A stretch of 62,002 nucleotides of DNA, the filler included. It is 5 parts of 5 records of this genome, joined end to end, with 100 filler letters (N's around TTAATTAATTAA, not from the genome) between each part and the next. Parts side by side here need not be neighbours in the genome. Positions count along the whole stretch, not along the records: positions 28,747 to 48,415 come from SRR20825010_5025; 4 more parts are not named here. The stretch is one strand, 5' to 3'. A program made the position numbers and the translations under genes. The first letter of the stretch is position 1, and the number at the start of each line of letters is the position of its first letter. Of the stretch, positions 29,507 through 45,534 are shown one piece after another. The notes beneath the pieces were generated by a model. The model saw only the letters and a list, made by a program, of their open reading frames with translations. It had not been told where the DNA came from and ran no database searches.

Positions 29507-30676
29507 CTACCTTTGCAGCGCCGGTCGAGCTGACACCTGAAGCAACGGTTTCGCTTCTGGGAAATCGTCGGGATAGAACGACCAAACCGGAACACGTTGG
29601 CGAACTTCGACCATCACTTCTTCCTGGTCAGCACGAATCTTCTGCTGACGAAGAATATCTGAGATATCGTCTTGAAGCTCTCCGACAGGAGTCACCCCAG
29701 CGTCTTCTCGTTCCAACACTCGGATGATGTGATACGCATCAGTGTCCTCGATGATCTCGCTCATCTTACCGGTCGGCAACGAGAAGATTTGCTGATCCAG
29801 GATTGCTGACACCAAAGACCCTTGATTAGTCCAATCATGCAATCCGCCTGAACTCGCGAATGGTTCTTCGCTCTTGGCCTTCGCAACCGCTTGCATGTTG
29901 CCGCCGTACAACGCCTCGCGTCCCATCTCGGTGATTGCGTTCATCGCCGCATCGCGAGTTGGGTGATTGCTGAACATGACCGTCAGCTGTTCCCAACGAG
30001 CACGGGCTTTGTGTTCGTACTTGGATTGATGTTCCTGGTAGTACCGCACAATCTCGGAAAGCGAGACCGCGGGGTCTTTGTTGACCTTGCTGCGGATGTA
30101 CAAGCTGCCCAGCATCTGGTCCATGAATTCACGCTGGCGGAAGGCCAGCGACGATCCCTCTTTGCGAAGAAGATCGTCGAGTTCTGCCTTTGAATCCACA
30201 TTGGCTTTTTTCATCAGCCCGGGCAGTTCCGTTTCATAGAACATCTGACGAGCCTTGGCGGCCATCGTTGCCTCCGCTTCACGTCGTTTGTCCGCCGCAG
30301 CGGTGCCGACTTGTTCCAACAAAAACGCTTCGCGAAGCATCCGACTTTGTATGGTTTGAACGAGCAAGCTACGAGTCATCCGCAACTTCACGTAGTGCAG
30401 TTCGTCCTCCGGTACCTCGCCACTGGCTTGCGTGAGCATACGAGAAAGCTGAGCATCCACACGTGGTTTCAGCTCGCCGAGCAGAACTCGTCCTTGGCCA
30501 ACAACGGCCATCACCGTTGCCGGATCTGTGGGAAGCGGCGTTTTCTTGGCTTCTTCCACTTCTGCGCGGGTCGGCATTTGCGCATGCAATCGCGGCACAA
30601 CCATGGCGGTTACCCCAATCGCCAACGCAATCCAAGCGAAACAACGAGGGACTACGTGATGGCAGGGCGAAGGCAT
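29507..30676 (-). CDS. Parvulin-type peptidyl-prolyl isomerase (SurA/PrsA-like chaperone)
   Basis: Signal peptide; SEEPFASSGGLHDW...IFSLPTGKMSEIIEDTDAYHIIRV rotamase signature. Confidence 0.85.
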   Translation of the reverse strand: MPSPCHHVVPRCFAWIALAIGVTAMVVPRLHAQMPTRAEVEEAKKTPLPTDPATVMAVVGQGRVLLGELKPRVDAQLSRMLTQASGEVPEDELHYVKLRMTRSLLVQTIQSRMLREAFLLEQVGTAAADKRREAEATMAAKARQMFYETELPGLMKKANVDSKAELDDLLRKEGSSLAFRQREFMDQMLGSLYIRSKVNKDPAVSLSEIVRYYQEHQSKYEHKARARWEQLTVMFSNHPTRDAAMNAITEMGREALYGGNMQAVAKAKSEEPFASSGGLHDWTNQGSLVSAILDQQIFSLPTGKMSEIIEDTDAYHIIRVLEREDAGVTPVGELQDDISDILRQQKIRADQEEVMVEVRQRVPVWSFYPDDFPEAKPLLQVSARPALQR

Positions 30677-30889
30677 GGTGACCCCAATTCGCAACGGAAA
30701 CAAATGAATGAGTTCGGCTTGTAGAGAAATCGAACGCGCATTGGCAACCGCGATTTAGCGACAATCGATGGATGAACAACGGTTTTCCATGGCATATCGA
30801 CTCCGTGTCGCATTGCTGGCACCGCCAACAGGCGAAACAATGCGTGAAACCCTGACCGTGAAACCGCTCCACTTCGATTGAAACCAGCC

Positions 30890-31825
30890 ATGGATTATCG
30901 CCCTGTCCAACTCGACGACGCCTTGGAAAACGACCTGCGGCAATTGGTCCGTCTTTCGATCGCAGAGGACTTGGACATCGCCGTCGACTGGACCACGGTC
31001 GCCATGATCGCACCCGAACGCCGTGGTGCCTGCCAGATCGTCCCTCGATGCTCCGGGATCGCGGCGGGGATCGCTTTGGCACCGTGGATCGTCGATGAGT
31101 TCGACGCCGATTTGGAAGTCGAGGTTTTGATTGACGAGGGAACTCCGCTGGTTCCCGGAGAACCGATCGTGCGGCTCTCAGGTTCGGCCAGAGACCTGCT
31201 GACCAGCGAACGCGTTTTGCTCAATATCCTTTCTCGACTGTGCGGCGTCGCGACATTGACCGGACGATACGTCGAAGCAATCGGAGAACACGACGCTCGA
31301 CTGTATGACACTCGCAAAACGACCCCCGGTTGGCGACGACTCGAAAAGTATGCGGTGCGATGTGGCGGCGGCCATAACCATCGAACCGGACTGTACGATG
31401 GCTTTCTGATCAAAGACAACCACCTCGCTCTCGGTCGCAGTGAACACGATGCTTCGTCCAAACTCACCGCCGGCGAAGCAGCGACGCGAGCCGTTGCGAT
31501 GCGGGGAGCCAGCGTCAATCAATTGGTCGCACCGCCGATGGTTGAAATCGAAGTCGACACGCTGGAACAATTTGAACAAGTCGCCACGACGGGCATCGAC
31601 ATTGTTCTGCTGGACAACTTTTCGTTGGATGACCTTCGCCGCGCGGTGGCTCGACGAGACGAACTGGGTGTGACACTCGACTTGGAAGCATCAGGAAACG
31701 TCACGATCGATACGATCGGCAACGTCGCTGCGACTGGCGTGGACCGAATCAGCAGCGGGGCTTTGACGCATCAAGCCACTTGGTTGGACCTGGGGATGGA
31801 TTGGCTGGACGGGTTCGCGAGCTAG
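30890..31825 (+). CDS. nadC: Nicotinate-nucleotide diphosphorylase (carboxylating)
   Basis: DTRKTTPGWR, NHRTGLYD, LIKDNH, EIEVD, LLDNF, EASG, ISSGALTH. Confidence 0.97.
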   Translation: MDYRPVQLDDALENDLRQLVRLSIAEDLDIAVDWTTVAMIAPERRGACQIVPRCSGIAAGIALAPWIVDEFDADLEVEVLIDEGTPLVPGEPIVRLSGSARDLLTSERVLLNILSRLCGVATLTGRYVEAIGEHDARLYDTRKTTPGWRRLEKYAVRCGGGHNHRTGLYDGFLIKDNHLALGRSEHDASSKLTAGEAATRAVAMRGASVNQLVAPPMVEIEVDTLEQFEQVATTGIDIVLLDNFSLDDLRRAVARRDELGVTLDLEASGNVTIDTIGNVAATGVDRISSGALTHQATWLDLGMDWLDGFAS

Positions 31826-31882
31826 TGTTGGGGAAATCGGACCGTTGGTAGCGGTCATTCACTTCCTCTTTGTACACCGACC

Positions 31883-33394
31883 ATGCCGTCAAACCACTCG
31901 GACGCCTCCTCAGCATCGTCGAAGTCTGCGGATTCAACCCGATCCGTTTCCATTTTGGGCAGCCAACATTGGTATGACTTCGTTCAGCCTTGCCTGGATT
32001 CGGCGTCAATATTGGCTTCGCTGGTGTTGGTCAAATTCGCCGCACGAGGCCATGTCGACGATGCATCCTTTGCAATGGGATTGATCGCGGTCATCGTGTT
32101 CTTTCTCAGCAGCCAATTGACCGGACTGCAACGAGGCGACCGTCGCGCGTGCACTGACAGTGAAATCATTCGCGTCATCACAACATGGACGATGACGATC
32201 CTGGTGTTAGGTGCGATCGCGTTTGCAACCCGCTACGGGCAGTACTTTGCCCGATCGGTGATTCTGTCTTGGTGTGTGCTTTGTCCCGCCATGATCGGAC
32301 TTTCGCGAATGTGTCTGCGAATCGTCCAATTTGGATTGCTTCGTCGTGGCGTTGGTGTTCGACGAGTCGCGATTGCGGGCTGCAACACCCTTGGACATCA
32401 GACACAATCCAACATCGAATCAGATTCGTCGCTCGGACTGCAGTTCGCTGGCTTCTACGATGACCGCAATTTCGCACGAGACAATGTCGAAAATGGAAGT
32501 GGCGAAACTGAATGCACTGATTCAGAAGATCTAAGTTTGACCGAATCCGTACCAGCGGTCTCACTTCAGGGTGACTTGAACGACCTTATTGCTGCGGCAC
32601 GTTCGGGTGAGATTGAAACGGTGCTTGTCACCCTTCCCATGCGTGCCGAGAAGCGAATCCGTTTTTTGCTGGACGAGCTGAGTGACTCAACAGCATCCGT
32701 TTACATCGTGCCCGATTTCTTCGTGTTCGAACTGCTCCACGCTCGCTGGACACAAGTCGGCGGTTTGCCGGCGGTCAGCGTCACCGAATCGCCGATGTTC
32801 GGCATCGATGGAGTCGCGAAAAGGGCGGCGGATTTGATCATCGCCTCGGCTGGGTTGCTGGCCATTTCGATTCCAATGCTGATGATCGCGGCGGCGGTCA
32901 AATTGACATCGCCCGGTCCGGTGTTCTTCCGACAGCGTCGATACGGATTGGATGGACAAGAAATCCGTGTCTGGAAATTTCGCTCGATGACGACGTGCGA
33001 CGATGGTGCCGTCGTCAAACAGGCCACTCATAACGATTCGCGAATCACGCCATTGGGTGCAATCCTTCGAAAAACGAGCTTGGACGAACTTCCACAATTG
33101 TTCAACGTGATTGAAGGATCCATGTCATTGGTCGGCCCCCGGCCTCACGCCTCCGCCCACAACGAACAATATCGCGGTTTGATCCGTGGATATATGATGC
33201 GGCACAAAGTCAAACCGGGCATCACCGGGTTGGCACAAGTCAACGGCTGTCGCGGCGAAACGGAAACGGTCGACAAAATGGAACAGCGGATCCATTTTGA
33301 TCACCAATACATCCGGTCGTGGTCGCTGTTGCTAGACATTCGGATCTTGTTCCGAACTCTGATGGTCGTTTGGAAGCAACCCGAAGCCTACTGA
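31883..33394 (+). CDS. wcaJ: Undecaprenyl-phosphate glucose phosphotransferase (WcaJ-like)
   Basis: KFRSM, DSRITPLG, RKTSLDELPQLFNV, MSLVGPRPHA, VKPGITGLAQV. Confidence 0.9.
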   Translation: MPSNHSDASSASSKSADSTRSVSILGSQHWYDFVQPCLDSASILASLVLVKFAARGHVDDASFAMGLIAVIVFFLSSQLTGLQRGDRRACTDSEIIRVITTWTMTILVLGAIAFATRYGQYFARSVILSWCVLCPAMIGLSRMCLRIVQFGLLRRGVGVRRVAIAGCNTLGHQTQSNIESDSSLGLQFAGFYDDRNFARDNVENGSGETECTDSEDLSLTESVPAVSLQGDLNDLIAAARSGEIETVLVTLPMRAEKRIRFLLDELSDSTASVYIVPDFFVFELLHARWTQVGGLPAVSVTESPMFGIDGVAKRAADLIIASAGLLAISIPMLMIAAAVKLTSPGPVFFRQRRYGLDGQEIRVWKFRSMTTCDDGAVVKQATHNDSRITPLGAILRKTSLDELPQLFNVIEGSMSLVGPRPHASAHNEQYRGLIRGYMMRHKVKPGITGLAQVNGCRGETETVDKMEQRIHFDHQYIRSWSLLLDIRILFRTLMVVWKQPEAY

Positions 33395-33417
33395 TTCAAC
33401 TCCTCCGTCGATGTCCC

Positions 33418-33993
33418 ATGTTCCCTTTGCTTCTCATCGATGGATACAACGTGATTGGGCCGGTGGCTCCTCCGTCGCGGGGTGCATCGCCGAATTGGTT
33501 GCATGACGAACGGCAGTTGTTGCTCAACCGGTTGTCGGAACACCTGACCGACCCCATTCGCAGTCGCACGTGCGTTGTCTTTGATGCTCGCAATCCGCCT
33601 CACGGCGTGAGCGATCAAATGATATTCGCCGACATGGATGTTCGCTTTGCGGTCGGCTACCCAGAAGCGGATGACTTGATCGAAGAGCTTATCTTCGAAC
33701 ATCCAAATCCCAAGTCCTTGACGGTGGTGTCCTCCGATCACCGTCTGCATGCGGCCGCCAAACGCAAGAAAGCATTGCCGATCGATTCCGATGTTTGGTT
33801 GGATGCGTTGCTGGATGGGCACATTCAAATGGCCAAACTTCCGAAAGCAACTTCCAAACGAAAACGCCACAAGAAGTCCGATCGTAAATCCGGTGAACCA
33901 TCTGCCGACGCATCGCCGAGCGGGCCAACATTGGACGCAATGCTCGAAACCGAAGAGCTACAGAAATGGCTCGATCAATACGGTTCTGATTGA
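33418..33993 (+). CDS. NYN-domain (YacP/Rae1-like) ribonuclease
   Basis: LLIDGYNV, VVFD, EADDLIE, VVSSDH acidic motifs; ATG 33418. Confidence 0.88.
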   Translation: MFPLLLIDGYNVIGPVAPPSRGASPNWLHDERQLLLNRLSEHLTDPIRSRTCVVFDARNPPHGVSDQMIFADMDVRFAVGYPEADDLIEELIFEHPNPKSLTVVSSDHRLHAAAKRKKALPIDSDVWLDALLDGHIQMAKLPKATSKRKRHKKSDRKSGEPSADASPSGPTLDAMLETEELQKWLDQYGSD

Positions 33994-34161
33994 GTGAGAC
34001 CGGCGGTCACGGCGAGCTCTGAAGAATGGCTCCGTCCATTTGGTCAGACCAGCGTAGCGAACGAAACACCAGCCAAGTTTCGCGATGGTCCGCTGTGTAT
34101 GCTGTGGGACCGATTGACCGATACTACCTTCTGATTTTGCACTCTGGCGGATTTGGCTCGA

Positions 34162-36279
34162 ATGATTCTGTCGTTGACTCGTGGACTGACTCTGTGCGGC
34201 TGCCTCGTAATGGCAACCGCCTCTTCTTTGCTAGCCGATGGACCGGCAGACAACCAAGCGGAAAACGTTCGTCCAATTCCGCCCCCCGGAATTGACGTCG
34301 ATTCTGGTCAACTGGAAACACTTCGAACATCCATTGAATCAGTCAGGAACCGTTGGCAACAACTATTGGATGCTGCCGGAGAGAAGAAACAAGACGCTGC
34401 CACGGCTGCTCGGTTGAGGGATCTCGAACCAGAGGTTTTGGTGTTTCCGAGAGCGGTCGAGATGACCATCGAGCAATCGATTTTCTACTCCCCAAAGGCG
34501 TTGGATGATGCGCAGCGATTACTCAAAATCGCTAACGATCGCATCAACCGAATCGCCGCCGGTGCGTCCTGGGCGGAAGTGGTCGGACTGCGAGCGAGCA
34601 AAGAAAAACAGCTGATTGCCGGCGGCTACCGATCAAAGATCGATGATTCGTTTCAGCCCTATGGCATCGTGGTTCCCGAGAATGTGAATGCCGTCGATAC
34701 GTTGCCGATTCGCATGGACATCTGGTTGCATGGCCGAGGTGAAAAGGTGTCCGAACTGGCGTTCTTAAGCAAACACAGCAACGATCCGGAACGCTATCGA
34801 GCCGGCAATGAACCGATGCCCCAATCTGCAATTGTGGCTCACCCCTATGGTCGCTACAGCAACGCGTTCAAATTCGCCGGCGAGGTCGATGTTCTGGAAC
34901 TACGTGACTACTTGCAGCGACGCATTGCCATTGACGAGCGCCGCGTTGCGATCCGAGGTTTTTCGATGGGCGGCGCAGGTTGCTGGCAGATCGCGACCCA
35001 CTATGCGGACCAATTCTTCGCCGCCACGCCGGGCGCAGGCTTTTCAGAAACACCTTTGTTCCTTGATGTCTTCCAGGGTGAAGACGCGGCCGGCACCGCT
35101 CCATCGCATCAGAAGACACTGTGGCAACTTTACGATTGCCCGCCCTGGGCGAGCAACCTACGGAACTTGCCGACGATTGCTTACAGCGGCGAAATCGATC
35201 GGCAAAAACAGGCCGCCGACGTGATGGAATCGGCGTTATCAGAAGAAGGGATCGAGCTGGTGCATTTGATCGGTCCGCAAACCGCTCACAAGATTCATCC
35301 CGATGCTCAGCAAGAAATCGGCAGGCGATTGGACTCAATCGAACAACAAATTACATCCGGCGTCCCTCGCAACGTCCACCTAACGACGCTGACCCTGCGT
35401 TATTCGCAGATGCACTGGATCGAAGTCACCGGAATGAGCCAACATTGGTCACCGGCCACCATCGATGCATCGGTCCTGGCAAGTCAAACTGGAAACGACT
35501 CTCAGATCATGATCGAGTGCGAGAACGTGACGCGAATCCGCGTGAACTTTGATGCCGGGCAATGGCCGGGAAAAACAGCCGGACGCACCGGCGTGATGAT
35601 CAATGGCGATCAGGTTGTCGATACCGACACCGGTCCACTGGTGGCTTCGGACCGATCGCTTGAAGCTGAGTTCATATTTGACGGAACGTGGAAAGTTGCT
35701 TCCGATGACGCAGCGTCTCTTCGCAAACGACCTGGATTGCAGGGGCCCATCGACGACGCCTTCATGGATCGCTTTGTATTTGTGCTGCCATCGGGGACAT
35801 CCGATGATCCCGCCGTCGAGCAATGGGTCCAAGCGGAATCCAAGCACGCCATGGACCATTGGCGGTTGCATTTCCGAGGTGACATTCGTGTGGTCAAAGA
35901 TACGCAAGTCGACGCGGCGATGATGGCCAATCAAAACGTGATTCTGTTTGGTGACGCCAGCAGCAACCAAGTCATTGCAAGGTTGCTACCCACACTGCCA
36001 CTTCAGTGGACCAACGATAAGATCAGCATCGGCGATAATCAGGTCACCAGAGCCAGGCACGTGCCAGTGATGATCTATCCCAACCCGGAGAGTCCAGATC
36101 GCTATGTCGTGATCAACAGCGGGTTCACCTTTCGCGAGTACGACTATCTGAACAACGCTCGCCAAACACCCAAGTTGCCCGACTGGGCATTTTTGGATGT
36201 CACAGAAGGCTCGACTTTCCGCGACCCTGGCAAGGTGATCGCGGCGGGCTTCTTCGATGAGTCATGGCAACCGAAGTGA
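34162..36279 (+). CDS. Secreted alpha/beta-hydrolase (prolyl-oligopeptidase/esterase-like)
   Basis: Signal peptide, DIWLHGRG, nucleophile elbow GFSMGG, YSGEID, AHKIH. Confidence 0.8.
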   Translation: MILSLTRGLTLCGCLVMATASSLLADGPADNQAENVRPIPPPGIDVDSGQLETLRTSIESVRNRWQQLLDAAGEKKQDAATAARLRDLEPEVLVFPRAVEMTIEQSIFYSPKALDDAQRLLKIANDRINRIAAGASWAEVVGLRASKEKQLIAGGYRSKIDDSFQPYGIVVPENVNAVDTLPIRMDIWLHGRGEKVSELAFLSKHSNDPERYRAGNEPMPQSAIVAHPYGRYSNAFKFAGEVDVLELRDYLQRRIAIDERRVAIRGFSMGGAGCWQIATHYADQFFAATPGAGFSETPLFLDVFQGEDAAGTAPSHQKTLWQLYDCPPWASNLRNLPTIAYSGEIDRQKQAADVMESALSEEGIELVHLIGPQTAHKIHPDAQQEIGRRLDSIEQQITSGVPRNVHLTTLTLRYSQMHWIEVTGMSQHWSPATIDASVLASQTGNDSQIMIECENVTRIRVNFDAGQWPGKTAGRTGVMINGDQVVDTDTGPLVASDRSLEAEFIFDGTWKVASDDAASLRKRPGLQGPIDDAFMDRFVFVLPSGTSDDPAVEQWVQAESKHAMDHWRLHFRGDIRVVKDTQVDAAMMANQNVILFGDASSNQVIARLLPTLPLQWTNDKISIGDNQVTRARHVPVMIYPNPESPDRYVVINSGFTFREYDYLNNARQTPKLPDWAFLDVTEGSTFRDPGKVIAAGFFDESWQPK

Positions 36280-36436
36280 TTCGACGCGGTGTGAGCGTTT
36301 GATGACCTTCTCGTTTGGAACGCACGAAAATCCGTTCCATTGTCGTCTCCCGATTGGCGTTCAAAACCTTGGTGAGTATGGTGGCTGCGGTTCCCCGATT
36401 CACCTCCAAATGCCTGACGATTGACTCACGGTTTCT

Positions 36437-37036
36437 TTGTTGCAAGTTCACCACAACCTCATTCGGTTTCCATCTCGCTACTGGATGGCGTTGGGGCCTG
36501 TTGTGCTTGCATGGGCGAGCGTCGGACTGCAGTGGGGTGGACACCACAGCCACCCGATCACGCCATCGACTGATTCGATTCCACGGCAATTGGAATCCGG
36601 CATTCATGCGTCTCGTCTTGCTGAATTGCATTCCCAATCACATTCACATGGCCACGCTCATCCGCACGATCATGGGCATTCGCATGGCGGCCGGCATCCA
36701 CATTCGCACGATTCCTCCCATTCTCACGTGACAGACACGACGCACATCGAAGGTGCAATCGTGGGCAGTCAGCTCCATTCGCACATTCGTTTCTTCGGGA
36801 TTGAATTTGTCGTGCTCGCGACCGCCGAGCAACACGAGCGGGACTCTGTCACCACGGGACTCCACGAACGCACGAAGAACATGGTTCTGCGTGTACTCAT
36901 GATCCGCAGTCCGATGCCACCGACTGGCGATCATTTCCTTCGATCCAACAGCGGCGACTTGGTATTGCTTGCCAATTCGCTCGTTGTCGGATGCGAACGC
37001 GCGGCGCCTTTGGTTCCGCCTCCTCAAGCGACCTGA
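36437..37036 (+). CDS. His-rich hypothetical protein with C-terminal RAAPLVPPP; candidate regulatory leader
   Basis: Hydrophobic N-region, 14 His in 33 aa (36629-36727), Pro-rich end; start may be ATG 36485. Confidence 0.65.
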   Translation: MLQVHHNLIRFPSRYWMALGPVVLAWASVGLQWGGHHSHPITPSTDSIPRQLESGIHASRLAELHSQSHSHGHAHPHDHGHSHGGRHPHSHDSSHSHVTDTTHIEGAIVGSQLHSHIRFFGIEFVVLATAEQHERDSVTTGLHERTKNMVLRVLMIRSPMPPTGDHFLRSNSGDLVLLANSLVVGCERAAPLVPPPQAT

Positions 37037-37198
37037 CCTTCGCTTTCTCAGTTCCCTTGAGGTTGATGACGTCCCTCACTTGGATGTCTCAATCTCACCC
37101 TGCGCGTTTCGTGTTTTCGCGATCCGATGCCGCATGCACCATGCGTTGTCTAGATCGGTGTGCGCGATCGTGCGATCTCAAGCAACCACTTCAATACC

Positions 37199-38173
37199 AT
37201 GTCTCTCTTTCACCAAACTCAATCTCGTAGCCGCCCCCGGTTCCGTCGCAACAATCAAACCGGATTCACCCTGGTCGAATTGTTGGTCGTGATCGCCATC
37301 ATTGGCGTCCTGGTCGGTCTTTTGTTGCCGGCCGTGCAGGCTGCACGCGAAGCTGCCCGGCGAATGTCGTGCAGCAACAACTTGAAACAACTCGCATTGG
37401 GAATTCACAACTACGAATCAAGCTTCAGACAGTTCCCGCCCGGTTACCTGCACAAATTCGGCGAACCAGGATCAATGTATCTTGCCAACCATCAAGGTTT
37501 TTCTTGGGGAAGTGCGATCCTGCCCCACATCGAACAAGCGGCCTTGTACGACACGATCCACTTCGACCGACCAACCTTTGATATCGAAAACCTTTCCGCT
37601 CGAGAAACATCGCTGCCCACTTTCTTATGTCCCTCGGACACCTATTCCGAAGGAGAGTTTGTCGTCCGTGATGACAGCTTGACGCCGATTCTTCAATATG
37701 CCGGTGCGTCTTATGCAGCGAACTGGGGTCCATCCACTTCCGCGGTCAATTTGGATGACACGCCGCTGGAAAGTGACGGGGTGTTCTTTCGCAACAGCAA
37801 CTTGAGGCACGCGGACATTCTCGATGGGCTGTCCAACACATTGGCGTTGGGGGAACGAACCAACGGCCCGCTTCCCGTCAGCACACCATCACCGGGTGGA
37901 CACAGCATTTTTGAAACCGCCTGGTTCGCTGCTGTGCACGACCGAGATGACTTCGAAGACGACCACGGTCACATGGTTCTTTTCGAGACTCAGTTTCGCC
38001 CGAACCAAATTGATGGTGATGACAAAGGGTTGTCGGCTCCCCATATCGGTCTGGCTCAATTCGCGTTGTGCGACGGCAGTGTGCGTGCCATCACTCAAGA
38101 AATCGATGCCGAGATCTACAATGCCCTCGGCAGCCGGAACGGCGGTGAAGTCATCGATTCCGAGGGTTTCTAA
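37199..38173 (+). CDS. DUF1559 prepilin-type protein with H-X9-DG motif
   Basis: [70 protein letters not shown]. Confidence 0.96.
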
Positions 38174-38260
38174 ATCGTTCCGCGGACGGTTGAGACCTGC
38201 TCTCCTTCTATTTCACTGCCCACTTAGCAGAACCATCATTCGAGCCCGACTGCCACAACG

Positions 38261-39724
38261 CTATTCCGTGGCGTCGGGCGTTTCTTGCGAAAGGTTGTAT
38301 TGAGTTCGGATTTGAAGATGGATGCCAGCCACGCGGCGATTGACGGCGGTCATTCGCTCTCGCACCGTTTCGACCTGGCCATCCGGGAACTGAAGATTCA
38401 GCTCCACTTCCCACCCCACGTCGTGCCCCATTTTCGAAAGCAGCTCCACCAAATCTTCGGTGAAGCGTTTGCGTGCGAGCGAGCCATATTGCTCGCTCGC
38501 AAATGACATGATCTGCTCGGTTGAGATTCCATCGATTGACTTGAGTTGCGACCAATCGCCAGCCACACAAACCGTTGGCAGATCGTCCTTCCACCGCACG
38601 TCTGTGAACGGGGCGATCCGAGCATACTTTCCAGCATTCACAGGAGGGTCCAACGCACTGACGACTTCCGCGTTGGATGATGCTTTGGAGCTGGCATGGG
38701 TGACAAAAGAAAAGATAGCTGCGAACGCCAAGGCAGAAACAACCAGAAGCGTGATCAGGACGACGATTGCCGGACCTCCAAGTCGCTTCGAGTTCGTTCC
38801 CGTCAACGGTTGCCCTTTGTAGCGTTTGGAAATGAGATACCAACGGCCGAAGAACATGATTTCGAACACAATCACGGCCATGACCACGGATTGAAAGAAC
38901 ACCGGACCGGCTTTGTCAAATGCGAACCGGTATCCGCTGTACGCTGCCATCAAAGTTGGCAGGAGAATCATCGCCGCGATCCACCATGACGGTACGATTC
39001 GGTTCCAATTCTCAAACCATTCCGCCGCTCCGGGATTGCCCTCGATCTTCGGGTCGTTTTCGGACAACGAAGAAACGAGTTCCACCAGTTCGTCGACCTC
39101 GGCGGCGTCGCTCGCGTCTTCGCTTTCCAGAGTTGCCACAATCCTGCGCAAGTGTTCTTGCCGCGGCTGAAGCTGCTCATCGACTGCTGCTTGATTGAGT
39201 CGATAAATCTTGCGGTAGGTATAAAAGAGAAATACGCCGAACGGTGTCGCAACAAGAAGACATCCCCACCAAGTGCCAGTGAGATTCCAGGCGAGATGGA
39301 CGAAGAAAGCCATCAACGAAATCGTAAACGGCAGCAGGTACCACCAGAAAACGTTTCGCAACAGCCAAATTTGATGTTCGACCTGAGTGAGCGATTCCTT
39401 CGCATAAAACAACAGCGGTTGCCCAGGATCGCTTGACGCCTTGGGATGTCGCTTGCGATCGATCAGCATGAAGCCCGCAATCCAAAGCAACACCGGCACG
39501 GTCAACCACCACGACCACGGCAACGAAAAGCCGATCCCCAACACCAACCAAACCGGGATCAGCAACAACGAGACGCCCACTTCACGCACATCTCGCCAGA
39601 AGATCATGGTGCGAAATTGATCGTCTGATTGCTGGACCTGTTGCGACAGCAACTCAGCATCGAACGTCACCTTCAACCGCGATGCATCGGCCTTCCAGGC
39701 TTGTCGAAACTTATCAAGACTCAT
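38261..39724 (-). CDS. Multi-pass membrane protein, putative anti-sigma factor
   Basis: Directly downstream of the ECF sigma; MSLDKFRQAWK N-terminus; about seven TM segments and a soluble C-terminal domain. Confidence 0.7.
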   Translation of the reverse strand: MSLDKFRQAWKADASRLKVTFDAELLSQQVQQSDDQFRTMIFWRDVREVGVSLLLIPVWLVLGIGFSLPWSWWLTVPVLLWIAGFMLIDRKRHPKASSDPGQPLLFYAKESLTQVEHQIWLLRNVFWWYLLPFTISLMAFFVHLAWNLTGTWWGCLLVATPFGVFLFYTYRKIYRLNQAAVDEQLQPRQEHLRRIVATLESEDASDAAEVDELVELVSSLSENDPKIEGNPGAAEWFENWNRIVPSWWIAAMILLPTLMAAYSGYRFAFDKAGPVFFQSVVMAVIVFEIMFFGRWYLISKRYKGQPLTGTNSKRLGGPAIVVLITLLVVSALAFAAIFSFVTHASSKASSNAEVVSALDPPVNAGKYARIAPFTDVRWKDDLPTVCVAGDWSQLKSIDGISTEQIMSFASEQYGSLARKRFTEDLVELLSKMGHDVGWEVELNLQFPDGQVETVRERMTAVNRRVAGIHLQIRTQYNLSQETPDATE

Positions 39725-39728
39725 TGTG

Positions 39729-40253
39729 CTAGCCCTCCGCGACTTCGACGTTCAGCAACTGAGACAGTGTTTTCTTTGCACGATTCAGCCTCACTCCGAC
39801 GTTGCTTTCAGATATCCCTAGAACACTGGCCATTTCGCGGTAGGACAATTCGTCCAGGTACAGCAACACCAAAGCAACATCGGATTTCGGCAACTGATGA
39901 ATCGCCTCGTAAAGTTGCTTCAGTGTCTCTCGCTGCTCAGCGTGCTCGGCTGAATCAATTGCTTCAGATGGAATGGTTTGCACTTCGAGCAGCGGCTGTT
40001 GGCACGTCCTTCGCCGTTGATCGTTGCGACGCCAATTCATTGCGGTATGCAGTGCAACGCGATAAAACCATGTTGCCGGACTGGCTTGCCCTCGAAAACG
40101 AGGCAATGAATGCCACGCCTGAAGCAAGATTTCCTGGGCGAGATCCTGGCTCTCTTCGCTGCCAAGCGTGTAGGCACGCGCCACCTGAACGACCGAAGCT
40201 TTGTGCTTCTCCAGCCAATCAATGAATAGCGACTTGGCATCTTCTTCCAGCAC
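39729..40253 (-). CDS. ECF RNA polymerase sigma factor
   Basis: QDLAQEILLQAW, TWFYRVALHTA, LSYREMASVLGISESNVGVRLNRAK; GTG 40253 follows GAGGG. Confidence 0.93.
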   Translation of the reverse strand: MLEEDAKSLFIDWLEKHKASVVQVARAYTLGSEESQDLAQEILLQAWHSLPRFRGQASPATWFYRVALHTAMNWRRNDQRRRTCQQPLLEVQTIPSEAIDSAEHAEQRETLKQLYEAIHQLPKSDVALVLLYLDELSYREMASVLGISESNVGVRLNRAKKTLSQLLNVEVAEG

Positions 40254-40441
40254 CAGTAGCCCTCGCTCAGTGGTTCCGTTCAACGTCTTTCTATTTGTGT
40301 TGGTAACGCTGGTAGCGCATCCCTTACACAAAAAGTTGGTCGTTCACGAAAAAATCGGTGTGCCGGGCTGATTGGCCAAAAACGCCTACCCGATTGAGTG
40401 AAGTGAACTTCAACCAACGCGAGTGGGCGCCTCACAAGTGA

Positions 40442-43400
40442 TCATGGGCTCGCTTGGGAGACGAACTCGGATGGCAATTCGTACTGTCCGTCCGATGCCA
40501 AACGGGTCGTGATCAAGATTGCTGACTTGTCCGGTTTCACCACCCACACCAATGCCTGCTTCGGATCGGCCGGCCCGGTCGCGGTTCGATCGGGGTTGGC
40601 CCCAAGCACCAAATCGGTCAGCACCGTTCGCAACGGAATATCATTTTTCGCGAAATCACGAATTTGTTGGTTTTGGGTGATGCCCATCTTCTGCAAATCA
40701 CCACCAATGATTTCGATGGGTGGCAATTGATTGTTCGCGGGCAGGTCACGGTTGAACTCTTCAGCAATCGTGTCGACGGCAAACTGCAACGATTCTTGAT
40801 CAAAGCTGACCGACATCTTCCGGTCCAGCATTTCCTCGATTGACAATTTGGTTTGATTGGACGCCATTGCCTCCGAGACTGGTTCGGTCGTCGTGTTTGT
40901 GGCGAGCAAGGTTGCCAACGTCAGTTGCGGCAGAGCCAATGGTGGCAGGTAAGCGTTCCAAACAAGTTTGCGATCCACGCGACCGGTACGCACATTCTCT
41001 TGAGCAAACGCCCACATCGACGGCAGCCTTGCGGCGAGCAATCTCCACGAAGGATCGATGTCACGCGTCACCAGGAAGTCTTCTGCCCAGCGAGGTGCGT
41101 TGTCGAGTTGGGCACGAAGTGGCGTCGCCAGCGCGGTGGGATCAACGCCCGGGGCGGCTGCCAAGCGAACTTCGACATACGATCCAGTTGGGCTGGTCGA
41201 TGTTTCGTTAAACGAATCTTCGGACGCGGATGCCACTCGAACCAACACACCACCGCAATCGGCGAGAAGGTTTTGTCGAATCCATGGAATCAGTTCCGGC
41301 GAAGTCGCGTCCATCCAACGCCTCGCATCGCTGACCAGGAAATTAGGCTGGGTAAGAAACGCGATCGCATCATTGGGACGAGCCGATTGCCAAAGTTCTT
41401 CGAGCAACCGCGGCAACACAACCGGCGCGCCTCCCATCTCGGCGACCTCACCAATGCGAGCGATGGAGCCAACCGCGAACGCATCGACCAGATCGTCGGC
41501 AGCTCCCGCAGGACGACCTTGCGTCATCGGGAAATACGCCAACGCATCGCGAGTGTCACCGGCGTAGATGGTCTCACCACCGGGTCCGCGTGCGGAAGAG
41601 ACGCCCCAGGTATCCAGCAAAGTTTCCAACGACTTTGGTTTGTTCAAACGAATTGCAGCGGCGACTTCTGGAATGCCTTCTTCTCCAGGAAACCAGGCCA
41701 ACGCCACATGAGCGATCGTTTCGCTAGGCACTCCCGACCATTGGTTCAGGGCGTCCAACCAGCTTTGAGTTTCGGGACCGAACATCTCCAGCAACCCGAG
41801 TTGTTGAAGTCGTTGCCAATCCATCGTCACCACCGCGGCGGGACCTGGTGGCAACAATCCGGTGGCACGACTGACTTGTTCACCGTCTGCCCGCAAGTCT
41901 GGCGGAGCCCAAAGCATTTGCTCGCTGTCGACGACTTGAATTCCCGTCGCAGGCGGATCGGAACGACGAACTGGAGAGCGGACCGGCGTCGTGGGCTGGT
42001 TCGTATCACTGGAAACGCGAGGAATGAATTGTGGAACCGGCGGCCGGACTCGCTTGGCAACTTCCCGCGGATTCTTGTCTCGAGTTGCCAGCATGGCGAC
42101 CAACACCAACACGGGAACGCACAACGCGTAGATCCCGTACCACGCTTTGCGGTTGCGTCGCCTTCGTCGACGTCGAACCGGAACAACGGCGGCAACGTTT
42201 TGTTTTGATTCCGTTGGTTTTGGTTCAGGTGTCGCGGTCGATGCTTCGGCTTTCGTCGCCTCATGGGTCACTGCGACGGGGGCAGTCGCCTTTGGCACTT
42301 CCGACTCTGCGACAACGAGCGGAGTGGCATCGGCTTCAGGGTCTGCGTCGACGGAAGCGACGCCCGCCGTAGCTTCAAGCTGTGATGTGCCACTTCGTTC
42401 TACCAACGCTTCCTTGGCAACTTTCGCGACGGACGCCACCTCTGCGTCCGCAATAGCCTTTGCGTCAGACGGCGTCTCAACTTTCTTGGGCGAAGTTCCC
42501 GAGCCTGGTTCCGATGTGCGAGATGGCTTGGCCAGCGGCGCGTTCTGTGGCGTCGGTTTGGAAGCCTCGACCTTTGGAGCAGTTTCTCTTGCCGCAGTTT
42601 TGGGCTTCGCCGGCGAAGTCGTTCGTTCCGCCTTTTTCTCAGTCGACTTCTTCTCGGTCGACTTCTCTACAACTGACGTCTTCTCCGTCGGACGCTTGGT
42701 GATCGTCTCTGTCTTCGTAGCCGATCGCTGTTTTGTAGGCGCTGGTTCCGTCTCTGGTTCAACCGGAGTTGCCGTCGCCGCCACGTTCAAAGCTTGCGCG
42801 AATTGCTCGACGCTTGCGAAGCGAGCATTGGGATCAGTCGCCAACGCGGCTGCCAAAACTCGACACAACGGATCGCCGGTTGCACCCTGCTCAACTGCCG
42901 TCGTCAATTCCGAAGGCAATGCGGATCGCGAATCGTTGGCAAAAGCAGGACGTCCGAACCGCAATTCAAATCCCAAACATCCAATTGCAAAGATGTCATC
43001 GGCAACCGTCAGTTCGTGATTTTGCGAACCAGCCAAACGTTCGGGCGACCAGTGAGATGGGGAATCGGGTGATGAATCGAGCCATGTTTCGCGTTTTGAC
43101 TTTCCGTTTTTTCCGGCAACGCTCTGCATCGATGCAAATGGATCTCGCAGCAAAGTCCATTGACCGGAATCGTTGGCCCAAATTCGATCGCGATGAATGT
43201 CGCCATGGACCATCTTCTTTGCGTGCATGGCTGCGACCGCATCGCAGATCGGATCTAGCACGGCCACGGTTTGCTGGACCGATCGAGGCTGGTCGGGTGG
43301 ATCCAAGCATCGTCCCGAAGCCAACGGGGTGAAAACACCCGCGAAATCATGGCGGCTGCCGATGGGCTCGCCCAATGGACCGTTCCGAACCGGGACAATC

Positions 43401-43849
43401 TCGATGGGTTGCAACGCTGGGTGTGATAGTTCGGCGTGAGCCCGCAAGTTGGCGGCGGCTTCGGCGGGCAAGCCGGCCGGATTGATTTGCCGCAACCAGC
43501 CGGAGACCGGCTTTGCACCGGCTTGCGCTGGGTCGCAAACCACGGATTGCCAATCCGAGAAAGGAAAGGGAGCCGATTTATCAGCCGCAACCAGGGTCAG
43601 CGGCGGAATTCGCAGGAGTGGCGTGTTGGGAAAGTCAACTTCCCACGTGGTGTGCTGCAGCACTCGCGAAATAGGGTATTTTTTAACTCGGCCGGTTTTG
43701 ACCAGCCACGATGCGAGCGACACGGGATCCGACGGCGGTTTGCCCCCGTGATCGTTCGCGAAATCGGCGGCCCAAATTGGTGGGTCGGAGGCGTCGGCCA
43801 GTCCGCTTTGGACCATCCGTTTCCAAAAATCGACAAGTTGCAGCGGCAT
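40442..43849 (-). CDS. Membrane-anchored Ser/Thr kinase-like protein (probable pseudokinase) with large C-terminal region
   Basis: MHAKKMVHGDIH, WSPERL, DDIFAIGC, DPNARF; low-complexity linker; RRRRRRR then TM; large C-terminal domain. Confidence 0.75.
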   Translation of the reverse strand: MPLQLVDFWKRMVQSGLADASDPPIWAADFANDHGGKPPSDPVSLASWLVKTGRVKKYPISRVLQHTTWEVDFPNTPLLRIPPLTLVAADKSAPFPFSDWQSVVCDPAQAGAKPVSGWLRQINPAGLPAEAAANLRAHAELSHPALQPIEIVPVRNGPLGEPIGSRHDFAGVFTPLASGRCLDPPDQPRSVQQTVAVLDPICDAVAAMHAKKMVHGDIHRDRIWANDSGQWTLLRDPFASMQSVAGKNGKSKRETWLDSSPDSPSHWSPERLAGSQNHELTVADDIFAIGCLGFELRFGRPAFANDSRSALPSELTTAVEQGATGDPLCRVLAAALATDPNARFASVEQFAQALNVAATATPVEPETEPAPTKQRSATKTETITKRPTEKTSVVEKSTEKKSTEKKAERTTSPAKPKTAARETAPKVEASKPTPQNAPLAKPSRTSEPGSGTSPKKVETPSDAKAIADAEVASVAKVAKEALVERSGTSQLEATAGVASVDADPEADATPLVVAESEVPKATAPVAVTHEATKAEASTATPEPKPTESKQNVAAVVPVRRRRRRRNRKAWYGIYALCVPVLVLVAMLATRDKNPREVAKRVRPPVPQFIPRVSSDTNQPTTPVRSPVRRSDPPATGIQVVDSEQMLWAPPDLRADGEQVSRATGLLPPGPAAVVTMDWQRLQQLGLLEMFGPETQSWLDALNQWSGVPSETIAHVALAWFPGEEGIPEVAAAIRLNKPKSLETLLDTWGVSSARGPGGETIYAGDTRDALAYFPMTQGRPAGAADDLVDAFAVGSIARIGEVAEMGGAPVVLPRLLEELWQSARPNDAIAFLTQPNFLVSDARRWMDATSPELIPWIRQNLLADCGGVLVRVASASEDSFNETSTSPTGSYVEVRLAAAPGVDPTALATPLRAQLDNAPRWAEDFLVTRDIDPSWRLLAARLPSMWAFAQENVRTGRVDRKLVWNAYLPPLALPQLTLATLLATNTTTEPVSEAMASNQTKLSIEEMLDRKMSVSFDQESLQFAVDTIAEEFNRDLPANNQLPPIEIIGGDLQKMGITQNQQIRDFAKNDIPLRTVLTDLVLGANPDRTATGPADPKQALVWVVKPDKSAILITTRLASDGQYELPSEFVSQASP

Positions 43850-44010
43850 GGCGACGAGAAGAAGTAACAACAGACCGGATCAACCGGCATCACATAGAAC
43901 TTTGACCTAGTTTATTCTGTCTGGCACGTCGACATCGGATGCCTTTTCGACGAATGTCCTTAGTCTCGTCATTTTCCTGATTCGCAACCTTGTAGAACCC
44001 CACCGTTGCC

Positions 44011-45534
44011 TTGAATATCGTCTACCTGACGACCGAAGCCGTTCCATTCGCCAAAACCGGTGGTCTCGCCGACGTCTGTGGCACTCTGCCCAAAGTGGTT
44101 GCCGCTCAAGGGCATCGCTGTGCGGTCATCATGCCTGCCTTTTCGTCGATCGAACGATCGTTGCAACCGATCGAGACGACCGACATCAGCTTCGCGGTTC
44201 CAATGTCGGATCAAAAGCTGATCGGTTGCCGCCTATTGAAAAGCCATCTGCCGAAAGATCCCAACGATCCAAAGGACTCGGCCGAGGTCCCGGTTTATTT
44301 CATCGACCAGCCGCAATACTTCCGACGCCCCTCGCTCTACGGTGACGCCAACGGAGACTACCACGACAACGCCGAACGATTCATTTTTTACTGTCGTGCC
44401 GCGATCATCGCGATGACTCGATTGGGGTATCCGGTCGATTTGGTGCACTGCAACGATTGGCAATCTGCTTTGGTACCCGCACTGTTGCGAGCTGCGTCGG
44501 ACAACGTGGCAAAGACCCAACCAATTGCGACGATGCTGTCGATTCACAACATGGCCTATCAAGGCAACTTTGGTTTCGATGCGTTTCCGTGGACTGGTTT
44601 GAGTTGGGATCACTTCCGACCGGAATCGTTCGAGTACTACAACCAGCTGAACTTCCTCAAAACCGGCGTTGTGACCTCCGATGTTGTGTCGACGGTCAGC
44701 CCCACGTATGCCTTGGAAATCCAAACGCCAGAGTACGGCTGCGGACTGGATTCGATCCTGCAAGGCATCCCGCAACCTGTCGCGGGAATCATCAACGGAA
44801 TCGACACAAACATTTGGAATCCCGAAACCGATCCACACCTCAAACGCAATTACAGCGTGGTGGATTGGGCGGACGCAAAGATTGACAACAAACTTGCGCT
44901 GCAAGCCGAGGTGGGTTTGCCTCAAGATCCCGACGTTCCGTTGTTGGGATTGATCGGTCGTTTGGCGGATCAAAAAGGTTGGGACCTGATCCTTCCCGTT
45001 TTAAAACAACACCTCGCCGAAGCACGTCCAACGCAGTGGGTCGTGCTGGGCAGCGGCGATCCCAAAATCGAGGAGCAACTACGCGAGCTGACCGAGCAAC
45101 ATCCCAAACAACTGGCCGCTTACATCGGCTTCAGCGATGCATTGGCTCATCGCATCGAAGCGTCGAGCGACATGTTCATCATGCCCAGCCACTACGAACC
45201 CTGCGGGCTCAATCAACTCTATAGCCTTCGGTACGGAACCCCGTGCGTTGTGACCAAGACCGGCGGATTGGCGGACACAATCGTGGATGCGACTCCGGAG
45301 AACGTTGCGGCAAATCTCGCCACAGGGTTCCATTTGAATGACAGCAGCGCCGGTGCGCTTGACCACGCGATCAACCGGGCTCTGCAGCTTCGATATCACT
45401 CTCCCGAAAAATGGAAAAATCTTGTCGAATTTGGGATGTCGCAGGATTGGACGTGGAGGAAAAGTGCAGACCAATACATTCAGCTTTATGCCCGCACAAT
45501 TTCCCTAAATCGTCGAAGGCGATCGGGAAGCTAG
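44011..45534 (+). CDS. glgA: Glycogen synthase
   Basis: EAVPFAKTGGLADV, HCNDWQ, IHNMAYQG, RLADQKG, PSHYEPCGLNQLYSLRYG. Confidence 0.97.
   Translation: MNIVYLTTEAVPFAKTGGLADVCGTLPKVVAAQGHRCAVIMPAFSSIERSLQPIETTDISFAVPMSDQKLIGCRLLKSHLPKDPNDPKDSAEVPVYFIDQPQYFRRPSLYGDANGDYHDNAERFIFYCRAAIIAMTRLGYPVDLVHCNDWQSALVPALLRAASDNVAKTQPIATMLSIHNMAYQGNFGFDAFPWTGLSWDHFRPESFEYYNQLNFLKTGVVTSDVVSTVSPTYALEIQTPEYGCGLDSILQGIPQPVAGIINGIDTNIWNPETDPHLKRNYSVVDWADAKIDNKLALQAEVGLPQDPDVPLLGLIGRLADQKGWDLILPVLKQHLAEARPTQWVVLGSGDPKIEEQLRELTEQHPKQLAAYIGFSDALAHRIEASSDMFIMPSHYEPCGLNQLYSLRYGTPCVVTKTGGLADTIVDATPENVAANLATGFHLNDSSAGALDHAINRALQLRYHSPEKWKNLVEFGMSQDWTWRKSADQYIQLYARTISLNRRRRSGS

Follow-up and report, generated by a model that had tools for sequence, protein, structure and literature searches.

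The locus analyzed here lies in a 62,002-nucleotide stretch of DNA (the window; five joined parts of one genome, filler included) and consists of a His-rich open reading frame (ORF), referred to below as the leader, followed on the same strand by a gene for a DUF1559 prepilin-type protein. Its features are:

36437..37036, plus strand: leader ORF, TTG start, 199 aa; RB6633 family; no family matched in Pfam or NCBIfam
36473..36526, plus strand: predicted N-terminal helix (residues 13-30; AF2, pLDDT 83-85), putative signal or anchor
36533..36562, plus strand: first conserved His motif, here WGGHHSHPIT (H37/H39); family consensus P-G-x-R-H-x-H-x-G-G
36629..36727, plus strand: His tract, in which 14 of 33 residues are His; predicted disordered, its length differing between family members
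36776..36817, plus strand: HxH beta-hairpin HSHIRFFGIEFVVL; H114 and H116 invariant; also found in the sister leaders of RND operons
37007..37036, plus strand: P-x-x-PPP tail with the last three residues and the stop codon; candidate arrest motif, lying 80 aa beyond H114
37037..37198, plus strand: spacer, 162 nt; predicted hairpins at about 37026-37045 (across the stop), 37058-37097 and 37101-37174; the start that follows is open and A/C-rich and lacks a Shine-Dalgarno sequence (SD)
37199..38173, plus strand: RB6634 orthologue, a prepilin-type DUF1559 gene (DDHGHM subfamily); ATG at 37199
37959..37976, plus strand: DDHGHM motif, candidate metal site; DDHGH kept in 18/18 aligned sequences

Of the elements on which the original prediction was built, the following are present: the ORF, the His tract (HSQSH...SHSH), RAAPLVPPP at 36998-37024, the 162-nt gap to the ATG and a DUF1559 start that lacks an SD. 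The DUF1559 assignment is confirmed by matches of the product to PF07596 (E 1.4e-74) and to the prepilin N_methyl profile (E 4.6e-9). Convergent with the DUF1559 gene, at 38261-40331 on the minus strand, lie genes for an ECF sigma factor and then a 487-aa multi-pass membrane protein without a family match, which are likely a sigma/anti-sigma pair.

The leader ORF is under purifying selection, i.e., genuinely coding; dN/dS is 0.13-0.46 in 12/12 orthologue pairs, and the window copy gives 0.31 and 0.46 against two congeners (L098 the former). Its 95% homologue, P0001, is a hypothetical protein of Rhodopirellula baltica whose cluster includes RB6633. The composition of the leader is unusual for the window, where 234 stop-to-stop frames of at least 100 aa include two with PPP within the last 19 aa and one with at least 10 His in 33 aa. 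Apart from one helix and one hairpin, the AlphaFold model shows little structure (pTM 0.33). A helix is predicted in the hydrophobic, signal-like N-terminal region that had been proposed, but its hydrophobicity is weak: the best 15-aa Kyte-Doolittle mean is 1.81, eighth lowest of 52 family members, against a family median of 2.51.

DUF1559 proteins are numerous in these bacteria, with 68 paralogues described in Planctopirus (PMC10632474) and 77 DUF1559 profile matches in genome G1186, and no tested function for DUF1559 was found in the open-access literature. The gene in the window belongs to one subfamily; in a congeneric genome from which 27 DUF1559 paralogues were parsed, HGHM occurs in one. 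In a quick version of a DUF1559 tree the partners of the leaders form one branch (SH-aLRT 99), which takes in 22 of the 23 representatives of clusters; all 26 G1186 paralogues in the tree, which were taken from 30 of the 77 matches, fall outside it. The gene is strongly conserved (dN/dS 0.04-0.08); the predicted structure of its product has a mean pLDDT of 44.6. In R. baltica, RB6634, a DUF1559 gene whose locus tag is next after RB6633, is repressed together with ribosomal protein genes in heat, cold and salt stress (PMC2754498); RB6633 does not appear in the main text or the two supplements of that study that were searched. Repression of RB6634 by stress shows that the target is transcribed and says nothing about metals.

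A six-sequence leader profile, searched against 1.84 billion representative proteins, gave 65 matches, which on reading the sequences comprise 50 with PPP tails, eight with the tail LCDxARxERSGVLLx, two with other tails and five that are unrelated. The family alignment (A2, 52 rows) was selected for PPP tails and omits 16 of the 65 matches: the eight sister tails, the five unrelated His- or Pro-rich proteins, the two other tails and one PPP member with a long N-terminus. Its motif order is a hydrophobic helix, P-G-x-R-H-x-H, a variable His tract, the HxH hairpin, a variable linker and G-R-x-x-D-A-P-x-x-PPP. H39, H114 and H116 are invariant, and H37 is kept in 51/52. As the original prediction had anticipated for a functional leader, the helix, the His motifs and the terminal PxxPPP are conserved (0.54-0.63) while the linkers diverge (0.08-0.26). 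The PPP lies 2-16 residues from the stop in PPP-tailed leaders and three residues before it in 31 of the 52; the last 15 residues include a PP in the window leader and in 51/52 members, a count to be read with the selection of the alignment for PPP tails in mind. The distance from hairpin to PPP is held at 79-109 aa (median 96, CV 0.09; 80 aa in the window), and the span across the His tract varies over 34-92 aa (CV 0.26) in the same 52 members. The leader diverges fast, with a median identity to the window copy of 28% against 65% for the DUF1559 partner.

Judged by their sequences, these leaders form an unnamed family of Planctomycetia, separate from DUF2946. Membership in DUF2946, suggested at the outset, does not hold for the window leader, which has no PF11162 match at E 1, no CXXC and no RAPP; in the family, PF11162 matches weakly in 2/52 members (best E 0.0011), and CxxC or CxxxC and RAPP or RGPP each occur in 0/52. 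The reading of RAAP as a motif of the RAPP type likewise fails, three more divergent close homologues having HAEP, RVEP and RAEP at this position. A looser pattern, R-x(0-4)-PxxPPP, is matched by 36/52 members. Family length is 159-242 aa, with 0/52 at or below 150 aa.

The association of the PPP leaders with DUF1559 is very tight. Leader profile matches occur in 40/401 genomes at the level of class and in 18/251 at the level of family (in both cases with only some candidates per genome scored), and in 7/23 genomes of the genus. Among 72 matches examined there are 43 PPP leaders, one frameshifted leader, 25 sister tails, one divergent tail and two false matches (L060 and L122). The fixed upstream position predicted for a leader is found without exception: a DUF1559 gene lies directly downstream of 43/43 PPP leaders, and belongs to the DDHGH subfamily in 42. 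These 43, of which 39 were found leader-first, i.e., without use of the neighbor, make up 23 clusters at 50% identity. Within the genus, the leader and the DDHGH-subfamily gene are present in the same 7/23 genomes, and the locus was not found in the other 16. Genome G001, which shares 57% of sampled words, has no match to positions 30000-45000 of the window, and the leader gene was found in 0/401 sampled genomes of its phylum; the words in common must lie in another part of the window or be artefactual.

Approached from the target, 9/17 intact DDHGH-subfamily genes have a leader directly upstream and 8/17 do not. Among the eight leaderless genes, a His-rich lipoprotein-like gene lies immediately upstream of, or within the same run as, four and at a distance of 3 kb from a fifth, another has HupE/UreJ downstream, and two were seen with a 1.5 kb flank only. 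Where the PPP tail is found, the leader is paired one-to-one with one DUF1559 subfamily (42/43), and the target does not require the leader. The His-rich lipoprotein-like genes (e.g., L005:4314-4982, L062:8051-8737 and L064:10148-10933) form an unclassified family, with no Pfam match in the two members tested; at L062 and L063 the gene is accompanied by an ArsP_1 permease. Two loci show damage. In L087 the leader frame is broken before the PPP tail and the DUF1559 gene is intact, by mutation or assembly error; in Rhodopirellula europaea 6C (L007:4909-5207) the upstream peptidase gene is immediately followed by a 3' remnant of the DUF1559 gene of about 68 codons, 90% identical, the leader and the 5' part being gone. 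In G1186 two other DUF1559 paralogues (L133 and L138) have His-rich upstream frames that end in RGPP and belong to a separate leader family; the leader profile has one match in this genome (E 1e-6) despite these two frames.

The 25 sister leaders have the same His module and the tail LCDxARxERSGVLLx-stop, and DUF1559 lies downstream of 0/25. The N-terminal module is common to both families (hhalign 99.4%), and the distance from the hairpin to the stop is 93-102 aa in the 22 of 25 sister leaders where it is measurable. A CusB-type adaptor or RND permease is encoded downstream of the 11 that have long flanks; the other 14 have a 1.5 kb flank only, and their downstream genes are unclassified. The CusA/CzcA cut-off was passed by 7/8 RND permeases tested, and the eighth is truncated where the locus stops. 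At many of the loci with sister leaders (L051-L059, L061, L092, L095, L109-L121 and L123) the first downstream gene is an unclassified lipoprotein-like gene. At L062:13913-14422 another small His-rich ORF, which ends in ...HHAYLI and is unmatched by the leader profiles, heads a divergent CusB-type operon. The LCDxARxERSGVLLx tail is a candidate for an undescribed arrest motif.

A link of the PPP leaders to metals is supported because the homologous sister leaders, where examined, head CusA/CzcA-type efflux operons. Metal-transport genes are also found at some loci: one PPP locus (L094) runs on into ZnuA and an ABC-3 transporter, and HupE/UreJ (L065) and the ArsP_1 permease (L062) are neighbors elsewhere. 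At most PPP loci no recognizable metal gene follows DUF1559; the gene that comes next in the window is convergent. Ligands that are His only suggest Zn, Ni or Co.

The window spacer is predicted to fold into three hairpins (z -3.99), which are kept in two congeners with 1/61 pairs doubly compensated; 22 nt across the PPP codons are identical in 3/3 aligned congeners. The TGAGG...CCTCA hairpin described originally is absent from this fold, which has the three other hairpins instead, and it is not conserved. The spacer is pyrimidine-rich, as had been noted, relative to the whole window (62% versus 51%), and lies within the range of family spacers (49-66%); C modestly exceeds G downstream of the stop (22 C and 11 G in 64 nt). 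No promoter-like or intrinsic-terminator-like site was detected, and neither leader nor spacer has an Rfam match. A hairpin immediately 3' to the PPP codons is not claimed as common to the family: z is below -1.5 in 7/23 clusters, against 8/23 for an upstream window.

In several lineages the codons of the PPP and tail are complementary to the ribosome-binding site (RBS) region of DUF1559, the sequences involved differing by lineage: CCTCCTGAG with CTCAGGAG in L105, TTTGCTTTCTG with CAGAAAGTAAA in L089, and CTCCGGAA with TTCCGGAG in L004 and L070. Compared with synonymous shuffles, the pairing has a percentile below 0.1 in 8/23 clusters and below 0.05 in 5/23; three control segments further upstream give 4, 2 and 0 clusters below 0.1 and 3, 0 and 0 below 0.05. 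The combined p of 2e-5 overstates the effect, as the clusters are related to one another and the RBS window was enlarged once following an initial analysis, in which 10/31 loci were below 0.1. The pairing is patchy, with 15/23 clusters not below 0.1. A ribosome footprint on PPP is predicted to open the DUF1559 start by at least 1.5 kcal in 14/31 loci, against 2/31 for an upstream control, and to close it by more than 1 kcal in 6/31; L084, which has no usable start, was left out of the start and RBS analyses. For the window copy the predicted cost of opening the start is 0.7 kcal without a footprint and 1.2 kcal when one is placed on PPP, and the tail-RBS percentile is 0.36; a structure masking the SD or RBS was looked for in this lineage, by accessibility and pairing, and not found.

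Among the known systems closest to this one are CruR of Bordetella pertussis and CutF of Rhodobacter capsulatus. CruR (Bp2923, DUF2946), which has a few homologues in Planctomycetes, is described as needing CXXC and RAPP 45 residues apart and as acting via Rho (PMC9426467). The leader resembles it, as there described, in being an upstream ORF whose motifs are spaced at a fixed distance and which is separated from its target by a long gap (162 nt in both), and the Rho-dependent output of CruR offers a model for the SD-less window lineage; it differs in that the window family has neither RAPP nor CXXC and a spacing of about 96 rather than 45, and the window protein has no DUF2946 match. CutF is reported to stall on PPP, opening an SD stem (PMC9973294; bioRxiv 10.1101/2025.02.05.636593). 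The leaders share with the CutF class, as presented in those sources, a predicted helix that may serve as an export signal, a putative metal-ligand His motif, a C-terminal PPP near the stop and a same-strand gene within 1000 nt (162 nt in the window; 43/43 PPP leaders), and some lineages (8/23 clusters, not the window) also have predicted RBS masking. Unlike CutF, the family is 159-242 aa long, lacks CxxxC, has a sensor-to-PPP spacing of about 96 aa and possibly an uncleaved anchor; its target is a DUF1559 pilin-like protein, the window lineage has no SD-masking stem, and the window spacer of 162 nt compares with less than 100 nt for most CutF-type spacers (PMC9973294). The survey of CutF-like proteins kept those of at most 150 aa and included His-only clusters (14 and 17) before HupE/UreJ (PMC9973294).

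The pairing of an arrest leader with DUF1559, put forward originally as not known to have been described, is in general form already catalogued in the source data (Fig. 4B) of the 2025 RAPP survey, where DUF1559 is an enriched class downstream of RAPP uORFs (112 versus 68, fold 6.5; 112 RAPP cases; PMC12992588). Those RAPP/RGPP uORFs are likewise small, His-rich and exported, carry a putative arrest motif and lie immediately before DUF1559, but they belong to a different leader family: among the 29 matches listed, most carry CxxC and all end in RAPP, as compared with 0/52 here. The His/PxxPPP family escapes both published catalogues because 0/52 members have RAPP or RGPP and 0/52 are at or below 150 aa. 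No paper on it was found in the open-access literature, and members could be present in the supplements of PMC9973294, PMC12992588 and the bioRxiv study. What is new here is the long His/PxxPPP family, its one-to-one tie to one DUF1559 subfamily and the swap of tail that tracks the target. The sister leaders in turn resemble CzcI of Cupriavidus metallidurans, described as preceding a czcCBA-type RND operon and as small, exported and lacking a proline tail (PMC9973294); the likeness of CzcI to the leader is at feature level (score 0.90), with no sequence-level match shown, and is a lead only.

The His-rich gene is probably a cis-acting, metal-sensing ribosome-arrest leader for the DDHGH-subfamily DUF1559 gene; the interpretation originally offered is partly supported and largely plausible. 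By this mechanism, the N-terminal helix would target the nascent chain to Sec, and the roughly 80-100 residues that separate PPP from the HxH hairpin would place the His motifs outside the membrane during a ribosome pause on PPP. Binding of a divalent metal at these motifs would then alter the dwell time on PPP; as no CxxC is present, Zn, Ni or Co is a likelier ligand than Cu. In SD-bearing lineages the paused ribosome would cover the codons that pair with the SD, turning DUF1559 translation on. For the window lineage, in which the start is already open, the output would most likely be a choice between read-through and, within the spacer, either Rho-dependent termination or decay of the mRNA, a weakly supported proposal; a CruR-like output is possible in this lineage because Rho is present in 4/4 genomes tested. 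The same four encode EF-P, which normally relieves pausing at PPP. As to polarity, DUF1559 being on under metal shortage is preferred, if only slightly.

Several observations converge on an arrest leader: the coding conservation, motif order, fixed position and joint presence or absence with DUF1559; the sister tail before efflux operons; the constrained hairpin-to-PPP distance beside an unconstrained His-tract span; the fast-evolving leader with little predicted fold beside a conserved target; tail-RBS pairing in part of the clusters and footprint opening in part of the loci; and the precedent of CutF and CruR. Against it stand the open start in the window, where tail-RBS pairing is unremarkable, the patchiness of that pairing across the family, the 6/31 loci in which the footprint closes the start, the normal relief of PPP by EF-P, the weak helix, the modest C>G skew, the eight of 17 target-first subfamily genes without a leader and a spacer longer than most of the CutF type. 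The long His tract and the purifying selection would also suit a His-rich metallochaperone or store of metal, stable and anchored in the membrane, acting in trans with the DUF1559 protein or pump, the PPP being structural or incidental; His-rich partners do recur, as in the lipoprotein-like gene near leaderless subfamily members (L005, L006, L062-L064), and the feature-level likeness to CzcI (0.90, a lead only) points the same way. We consider this unlikely, as it leaves unexplained why PPP is invariant 2-16 residues from the stop, why the hairpin-to-tail distance is constrained, why the tail swap tracks the downstream gene, and why there is RBS pairing at codon level and nearly no fold.

That the leader arrests but, in the manner of SecM, senses export or pilin-assembly capacity, or EF-P and the state of translation, with a secondary role for the His tract, would fit a prepilin-type membrane protein as target and the repression of RB6634 with ribosomal protein genes in heat, cold and salt (PMC2754498). 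This too appears quite improbable in view of the invariant His residues outside the low-complexity tract, the metal pumps headed by the sister family and the metal-transport neighbors (ZnuA with ABC-3, HupE/UreJ and the ArsP_1 permease). It is more doubtful still that the family senses metals while the window copy is partly degenerate and its DUF1559 gene more or less constitutive; the weak helix with an internal Pro, the open SD-less start and a locus that was not found in 16/23 congeners, is deleted in L007 and frameshifted in L087 would agree with decay, but the frame is intact at a dN/dS of 0.31 against L098, the 22 nt over the PPP codons are identical in 3/3 congeners and the spacer hairpins are kept (with one of 61 pairs doubly compensated).

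A metal-sensing arrest leader, the preferred explanation, bears on DUF1559, which is the largest paralogue family of planctomycetes: a leader that is tied to one subfamily and homologous to the leaders of metal pumps provides a concrete handle on DUF1559 function. The family also shows that catalogues of arrest leaders defined by RAPP/RGPP or by a length of at most 150 aa overlook polyproline leaders of greater length as well as a tail type without proline. A more speculative extension, which we regard as rather unlikely, is that one His module serves two interchangeable arrest tails of opposite sign, PxxPPP turning on DDHGH-type DUF1559 under shortage and LCDxARxERSGVLLx-stop turning on CusA/CzcA pumps under excess, with the DUF1559 subfamily acting as a surface metal-scavenging pilin. 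If true, a metal-scavenging pilin would be the first function assigned in the DUF1559 family.
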